This document shows positions 14,708 to 15,003 of a DNA stretch of 15,003 bases, piece after piece. The notes under the pieces are model-generated. The model worked only from the letters and a program-made list of their open reading frames with translations, did no database searches and had not been told where the DNA came from. Source of the stretch: a virus (Duplodnaviria; Heunggongvirae; Uroviricota; Caudoviricetes); IMG/VR virus record IMGVR_UViG_2734482594_000016; one strand, given 5' to 3'. Each line of letters opens with the position of its first letter. Positions within the stretch are counted from its first letter, which is position 1. The position numbers were made by a program, and so were the translations under genes.

Positions 14708-14896
14708 GAGAATTTTTAAGCTAAATCATCTTTTGTTCCCCTCCCGAAATGCATAAAACGAACAACAACATAATCATAAGTAATTGATATTTATTATATT
14801 TTTTGAAGAAAGGAAATCATGTAAAACTAGGGAAACATGATAAGAATCATCAATGAGATACGTTTTCTCTATTAGTTCTCCCAACCTTACCAATAC

Positions 14897-14964
14897 AAGA
14901 ACACAAATAAAGAACACAAAAACTAAGTAATGATGCAAACATAATAAAGAACACAAATAAAGAA
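14897..14964. repeat. Two exact 18-bp direct repeats AAGAACACAAATAAAGAA (14897-14914, 14947-14964) plus a partial third copy at 14911-14921
   Basis: Seen directly in an AT-rich, apparently non-coding stretch upstream of the sopA operator. Confidence 0.7.
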
Positions 14965-15003
14965 TTAAAGCTAAATGTTAAATAAAGCAGTACACAAAAT
15001 GAG

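Follow-up and report, generated by a model that had tools for sequence, protein, structure and literature searches.

The window, i.e., the whole stretch of DNA analysed, is 15,003 nt long, and its right part carries a partition operon and an AT-rich region with direct repeats. Both partition genes are coded on the minus strand. sopA (13442–14608) codes for a type Ia ParA protein with a match to AAA_31, and sopB (12477–13442) for a centromere-binding ParB protein with a match to SoPB_HTH. The products of both genes are 100% identical to those of Escherichia albertii plasmid pEA8_3 (NZ_CP117561.1; L003 and L007 in our set of loci), and SopB is 73% identical to SopB of N15. The stop codon of sopB and that of a converging tail-fibre assembly gene are separated by 32 bp with one hairpin. 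This GC-rich hairpin, CCCCTGCAATGCAGGGG at 12453–12473, fills the sole room for an F-like sopC and is probably a bidirectional terminator. In pEA8_3, a gene annotated as 'secretion protein EspS' lies between the tail fibre genes and sopB (L003 99–974, NZ_CP117561.1 34530–35405); the window has a different tail-fibre/assembly module, and a variable cargo/host-range region is therefore placed beside the sop operon. N runs are present at 1930–2212, 4301–4559, and 7408–7595 (730 bases in total) in the tail-gene part of the window. As these are masked stretches, the ORFs listed across them are unreliable.

A SopA autoregulation operator was recognized at 14630–14707. It consists of two CTTTGC hexamers, at 14630 and 14649, with an interval of 13 bp, their partners in inverted orientation, GCAAAT at 14664 and GCAAAG at 14683, which both come after a 28-bp spacer, and one more GCAAAG at 14702. 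The hexamers are conserved in all relatives, and from its sequence the operator appears to be intact. An architecture of hexamers in inverted repeat with a 28-bp spacer was proposed for the partition promoters of F, N15, and phiKO2 (PMC8465637), and the operator in the window matches it.

The repeats are located 289–356 bp upstream of the sopA start codon. The 18-mer AAGAACACAAATAAAGAA has two exact copies on the plus strand, at 14897–14914 and 14947–14964, with a start-to-start distance of 50 bp. A third, partial copy is represented by the 10-nt core AGAACACAAA at 14911–14920, which shares its first nucleotides with the end of copy 1. The exact repeat, its partial third copy, and their AT-rich location upstream of sopA, all reported in a preliminary description of this DNA, were confirmed: the top strand of the sop-side arm contains 51% A and 21% T, and the arm on the other side, next to telN, mirrors this asymmetry. 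The repeat is beyond chance, as no match to the 18-mer with up to three mismatches was obtained in 200 dinucleotide shuffles of the window, and the longest direct repeat of the local A-rich 300 bp, 18 nt, was never reached in 1000 first-order Markov simulations (mean 8.9, maximum 14). The only ORF overlapping the repeats (14774–14956, minus strand, 60 aa) had no match in a Pfam search, and in 8 of 14 distinct aligned sequences of relatives it is interrupted by stops or frameshifts. The repeats are therefore non-coding; a position inside a coding sequence, which the preliminary description had named as the outcome speaking against its proposal, was not found. No sigma-70 promoter overlapping the repeats was predicted, and the number of predicted promoter sites was no higher than in shuffles.

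Sites of the partition system

In the preliminary description, it was noted that no sopC-like array follows sopB, that the centromere must lie elsewhere, and that the repeats are one candidate for it. The first two points are borne out. Only the 32 bp with a single hairpin are available after sopB, and the sites expected for this SopB were found in the other arm of a relative. SopB of N15 recognizes four sites, IR1–4, which are palindromes of 16–18 bp, GTGCGACC-NN-GGTCGCAC (PMC7205306, Table 4). A scan for GCGACC-NN-GGTCGC in the N15 genome (AF064539), used as a positive control, returned exactly the four known sites at 33481, 35932, 41126, and 45563, including the one within repA that is mentioned in PMC2847241. 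The same scan of pEA8_3 revealed five sites, at 720, 3163, 8056, 11065, and 11285, all in the arm beyond telN. In the window, no SopB box of N15 type (GCGACC-NN-GGTCGC) or F type (GGGACC-NN-GGTCCC) was identified with up to three mismatches. As SopB of the window is the same protein as SopB of pEA8_3, dispersed palindromes are the expected centromere.

The repeats themselves were rejected as the SopB centromere, since the 18-mer is without dyad symmetry and does not resemble SopB sites. The cis-acting sites of the sopAB system, which the element of the window carries as F and N15 do, are 16-bp dyad-symmetric palindromes, in tandem in F sopC and dispersed in N15 (IR1–4), whereas the repeats in the window are asymmetric, A-rich, and unrelated to them. 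That the repeats adjoin the sop operon and that sopB has no downstream sopC array would fit with a substitute for sopC. With five palindromes of N15 type in the other arm of an element whose SopB is identical, this role is nevertheless extremely improbable, and the occurrence of the repeat motif on the telN side too, in inverted orientation and changing with the protelomerase lineage (see below), also speaks against it.

Telomere beyond the window end

The window stops before the palindrome described here, and the telomere context therefore comes from near-identical relatives, not from the window. Window positions 14600–15003 match 17 plasmid records, nine complete E. coli genomes (always in plasmids of ~46–81 kb), and phage PhiR46_1. 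In this range, pEA8_3 is 99.8% identical and CP088810.1 (L002) 100% identical to the window. The sequence of pEA8_3 continues with a perfect 42-bp palindrome, composed of ACATAATTACCCATTATACGC and GCGTATAATGGGTAATTATGT, the centre of which is 63 bp past the window end, i.e., at window-equivalent 15066/15067. Its core, CCCATTATACGCGCGTATAATGG, is the core of N15 telO. The telN gene of pEA8_3 starts 191 bp past the palindrome centre, ~250 bp past the window end, and codes for a protelomerase with the Pfam domains TelK_N, muzzle, ResT-TelK_cat, and stirrup and with 77% identity to TelN of N15.

Three records locate the physical hairpin end at the palindrome centre. The record of PhiR46_1 ends at this centre with an annotated tel site, linear record NZ_CP145143.1 ends 12 bp after the window-equivalent end, and CP088810.1 has an inverted duplication about exactly the palindrome centre, which, judged from the sequence, is a read-through of the hairpin by the assembler. 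Given telRL, telN, and these ends in the relatives, the window is assigned to an N15-like linear plasmid-prophage of Escherichia, and its repeats are ~100–170 bp from the sop-proximal telomere. By the N15 convention, and in the annotation of PhiR46_1, telR denotes the prophage end next to sop and telL the end next to telN; the arms are called sop-side and telN-side here.

Perfect inverted duplications centred on the telomere, with 143 to >190 nt per arm, are present in several public 'circular' plasmid records and IMG/VR contigs: L002 (CP088810.1) at 4009–4926, L011, L033, L034, L035, L052, L069, L073, and L074, with record lengths up to 61–92 kb. These mirror-duplicated records are hairpin read-through assembly artefacts of linear plasmid-prophages. 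An Rfam scan of the intergenic region between sopA and telN gave only sub-threshold matches to miRNA hairpins; they are located on the telO palindrome itself and are thus artefacts.

Units of the array and their conservation

The 18-mer does not itself represent the functional unit, but combines a 13-bp unit with the first 5 nt of the following one. The core of the unit is (A)AGAACAYAA. All units of the window are on the plus strand. Unit 1, AAGAACACAAATA (14897–14909, ~170 bp from the telomere centre), represents the first 13 nt of 18-mer copy 1, and unit 2, AAGAACACAAAAA (14910–14922), which follows after 13 bp, completes this copy with its first 5 nt. Copy 2 is built in the same way from unit 3, again AAGAACACAAATA (14947–14959), and the first 5 nt of the degenerate unit 4, AAGAATTAAAGCT (14960–14972), 13 bp after it. 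Unit 5, CAGTACACAAAAT (14988–15000), is degenerate as well, and of unit 6 only the start, GAGAATATTACAC (15001–15003), precedes the window end. Counted from the telomere centre, the units of the sop side are at −169 (14898), −156 (14911), and −119 (14948), all intact; at −106 (about 14961) and −78 (14989), both degenerate; at −65 (15002), cut by the window end; and at −47 and −34, outside the window. Their spacing of 13/37/13/28 bp is irregular. When the sequence is extended rightwards by L003 and L002, which are 99.8–100% identical to the window over 14600–15003, the array goes on with AAGAACACTAATC and AAGAACATAACGA, and the inner telRL arm and its palindrome follow. The sequence past 15003 in the element of the window should be GAATATTACACTAAATAAGAACACTAATCAAGAACATAACGAAACATAATT(A/C)CCCATTATACGC.

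In 14 distinct sop-side arms of relatives, units 1 and 3 have cores that differ only by C/T at one position, while the spacers and the second unit of each doublet are variable. The core AAGAACAYAA of unit 1 is kept at its position in 14/14 sequences and AAAGAACAYAAATA of unit 3 in all relatives; unit 2 varies (AGAACAT, AGATCG). The two 18-mers are mutually identical only in the window's own subgroup and differ from each other at one to four positions in close relatives. It is thus the core of 9–10 nt and its position that are conserved among relatives, rather than the exact 18-bp identity.

On the telN-side arm, the motif is present on the opposite strand, e.g., CAGAACACAATAA at −102 and CGTAACACAATTT at −159, so that this arm also reads toward the palindrome. 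On this side only, two copies 13 bp apart, CAGAACAAAG and AGGAACAAAT, are placed immediately beyond the outer telRL arm and face in the direction opposite to the telomere (L003 4498–4520; N15 equivalents at L005 ~3033–3058), a pattern seen in every lineage examined. As this pair has no counterpart on the sop side, the arms are not symmetric next to telRL. The positions of the telN-side copies at −162 and −105 are conserved across all lineages, and their sequence follows the motif of the lineage. The site at −162 (L003 ~4615–4631) is ~29 bp upstream of the telN start codon and beside a −10-like hexamer GATAAT, and it could be considered a candidate telN operator.

The motif is confined to the telomere region. 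All five AGAACA[CT]AA copies of the 47.4 kb pEA8_3 are inside the 451-bp telomere region and face the centre, while 0.05 copies would be expected there (Poisson P ~2e-9). The search of this whole element for the 18-mer with up to three mismatches gave three matches, all inside the same 451 bp. Iterons were the second possibility raised in the preliminary description. Direct repeats in AT-rich DNA of a low-copy plasmid could suggest them, or another origin element for a plasmid replication initiator, but no rep gene is adjacent, and elements of N15 type have their origin within repA, which is several kb distant and beyond telN (PMC2847241). Moreover, the motif does not occur anywhere else in the 47-kb element, the repA side included, the spacing is irregular, and the array is mirrored about the telomere palindrome and not about an origin. 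An iteron function is accordingly most improbable.

For comparison across protelomerase lineages, junction loci were gathered by TelN and SopA searches, and 18 true telRL junctions were kept after hairpin read-throughs had been excluded. A scan of GTDB genomes with TelN yielded only three loci, and the diversity came from IMG/VR. The telomere centre is 171–194 bp upstream of telN in 18 out of 18 junction loci. In each of 12 representative loci from at least five protelomerase lineages, a repeated hexamer-plus motif is present on both arms and faces the telomere. Inverted copies are all but absent from the sop side, while one or two of them occur beside telRL on the telN side. The motif is AGAACAY in the family of the window, N15, and a Pseudocitrobacter prophage, ATAACAC in the phiKO2 clade, and CGTAACA in more distant elements. 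The telomerase occupancy site, tos, of N15 has five to six copies of the AGAACAY-type motif, with ~0.1 expected. In the N15-like clade, a self-shift of 13 bp gives the strongest periodicity for nearly every arm, while in the phiKO2 clade the periodicity is 18–19 and 24 bp and not 13 bp.

The repeats in the window are homologous to the tos flanks of N15 in position, motif, orientation, and phasing. In both elements, the region is between sopA and telN with the same telO core, the telomere centre is 191–192 bp upstream of telN, and AGAACAY units in 13-bp doublets occupy both arms and face the palindrome over a comparable extent of ~170–190 bp per arm. The published primers for N15 tos (PMC2847241) bracket exactly the repeat-bearing 0.4 kb of N15. 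Besides the related TelN and SopB (77% and 73% identity, respectively), the stirrup domains of TelN are nearly identical in the family of the window and N15, which fits with their common AGAACA motif. The DNA of the region is only ~70% identical, however, and the inner arm is ACATAATTACCC in the family of the window and CACACAATTGCCC in N15. In this family, 42 bp form a perfect palindrome, whereas that of N15 has 22 bp within an imperfect telRL of 56 bp, and the two exact 18-bp copies belong to the window variant. phiKO2, which carries the TelK target, and related Klebsiella telomere phages share the order sopB-sopA-telRL-telN, the palindrome core, and telomere-facing repeats on both arms, but their flank motif is ATCATAACACAAT instead of AAGAACACAA, and the spacing is 18–19 and 24 bp instead of 13 bp. 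PY54 and vB_YenS_P840 also have a protelomerase palindrome with an extra flanking inverted repeat, the necessity of which is debated (PMC10612081). Theirs is a single pair of 10–15 bp, dispensable for in vivo processing in P840, instead of a polar array of multiple copies.

Slippage or duplication in A-rich DNA could have generated such repeats without any function. The exact 18-bp identity is specific to the window variant, the second units of the doublets decay in relatives, and telRL resolves alone (PMC3540006), all of which would be compatible with this origin. On the other hand, the cores and their positions persist between lineages that are only ~70% identical in this region, the orientation toward the telomere is kept on both arms across the 12 loci with few exceptions, the motif does not occur away from the telomere, and the 13-bp phasing is common to N15. 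Functionless repeats are thus improbable.

Possible ligands of the flank repeats

Taken together, the repeats more probably represent the outer part of the sop-proximal arm of the telomere-resolution region, the counterpart of N15 tos, and are bound by the protelomerase; we assign to this explanation a probability of about 0.7. Its two parts differ in strength: that the repeats are subtelomeric flank repeats of tos type is very probable, and binding of the protelomerase to them is moderately probable. The third idea of the preliminary description, namely that a regulator with its gene past the window end binds the repeats, comes close to it, as telN begins outside the window; this part of the idea stands, and the binding is held with the moderate confidence just given.

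The N15 target is described in section 17 of PMC12624138. According to it, the natural target of N15 TelN is ~310 bp, L3/R3 are the outer telRL motifs, and two or more degenerate L3/R3 copies flank telRL on each side, L1/L2 and R1/R2 (for these four, our description combines this source with our own reading of the N15 sequence). Binding of all the flank copies by the TelN domain CTD1 is called 'conceivable' by the authors, and TelN's C-terminal domains are not needed for protection from Mre11-Rad50. Since these domains are dispensable for protection and the 56-bp telRL alone is enough for resolution (PMC3540006), the role of the flank repeats would be accessory.

Once the protelomerase has cut and resealed the palindrome, the repeat stretch becomes the last ~170 bp before the covalently closed hairpin, i.e., the subtelomere. 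The mechanism could be as follows. The units would derive their motif from the outer telRL arm (L3/R3 in N15), as copies of low specificity, and would serve as accessory, low-affinity sites for additional protelomerase molecules, probably by means of the stirrup (CTD1) domain. Such extra binding would raise the local occupancy of the protelomerase, either at the telomere or at the junction after replication, and may organise a larger nucleoprotein structure of the end. The units on the telN side may also autoregulate telN, and those at the lineage-conserved positions −162 and −105 are therefore candidate autoregulatory sites.

Evidence on the likeness of the flank units to the telRL arms varies among lineages. 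The units resemble the outer telRL arm of their own lineage significantly in five lineages (L008, L036, L006, L060, and L009). This likeness speaks for TelN as the protein that reads the units, as do the dependence of the motif on the protelomerase lineage and the nearly identical stirrup domains that accompany the common motif of N15 and the family of the window. In the flanks of the window's family, matches to the R3 11-mer with up to 3/11 mismatches were not above shuffles (p = 0.14 and 0.78), and the units of this family are less similar to R3 than those of several other lineages. They are therefore not claimed here as R3 copies. Compared by eye, AGAACACAA and AGCACATAA match at 7/9 positions. 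As to geometry, a 13-bp distance between units leaves too little room for two full protelomerases of 72 kDa (631 aa) to be bound next to each other without overlap.

Some of these observations would also suit another protein, either a small phage DNA-binding protein or a host nucleoid protein, which would organise or regulate the subtelomere, e.g., by insulating sopAB and telN. A spacing of 13 bp suits a small domain better than an enzyme of 631 aa, the units of the window's family match the TelN-bound R3 weakly, and the conserved positions −162 and −105 on the telN side suggest operator-like roles; that TelN does not need its C-terminal domains for end protection, as stated in PMC12624138, points in the same direction. 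A host factor is difficult to reconcile with a motif that, within the same host genera, varies according to protelomerase lineage, and any other protein with the resemblance of the units to the outer arm of their own telRL in five lineages. Furthermore, no other conserved DNA-binding gene adjoins the region. Binding by a protein other than the protelomerase is thus rather unlikely.

An extended form of the protelomerase explanation can be put forward as well. The array would then be conserved and strictly polar with ~6–8 sites per arm, 13-bp phased in the N15 clade and diversified by lineage. Either protelomerase, as a multimeric filament held by its stirrup domain, or a second protein would be loaded onto it. 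This complex would fold or cap the hairpin, as a bacterial-phage analogue of a shelterin-type subtelomere, and couple the expression of telN, and possibly of sopAB, to the occupancy of the telomere. We regard this scheme as speculative and rather doubtful.

The flank-repeat feature is already known from N15 and is found here in a related family of Escherichia phage-plasmids. What is added concerns the array: it exceeds 'two degenerate copies' in length and regularity, is polar, has a 13-bp phase in the N15 clade, and is specific to the lineage. For N15, what the repeats beyond the 56-bp telRL do is acknowledged as a loose end in PMC12624138. By itself, the cross-lineage comparison reveals no new mechanism, but it yields concrete sites to mutate. 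For annotation, recognition of the array prevents misassigning the partition site, as N15-like plasmid-prophages use dispersed SopB palindromes. A-rich direct repeats upstream of sopA mark a nearby hairpin telomere, and in practice they can draw attention to assemblies stopping at the hairpin or carrying an artificial duplication about it.
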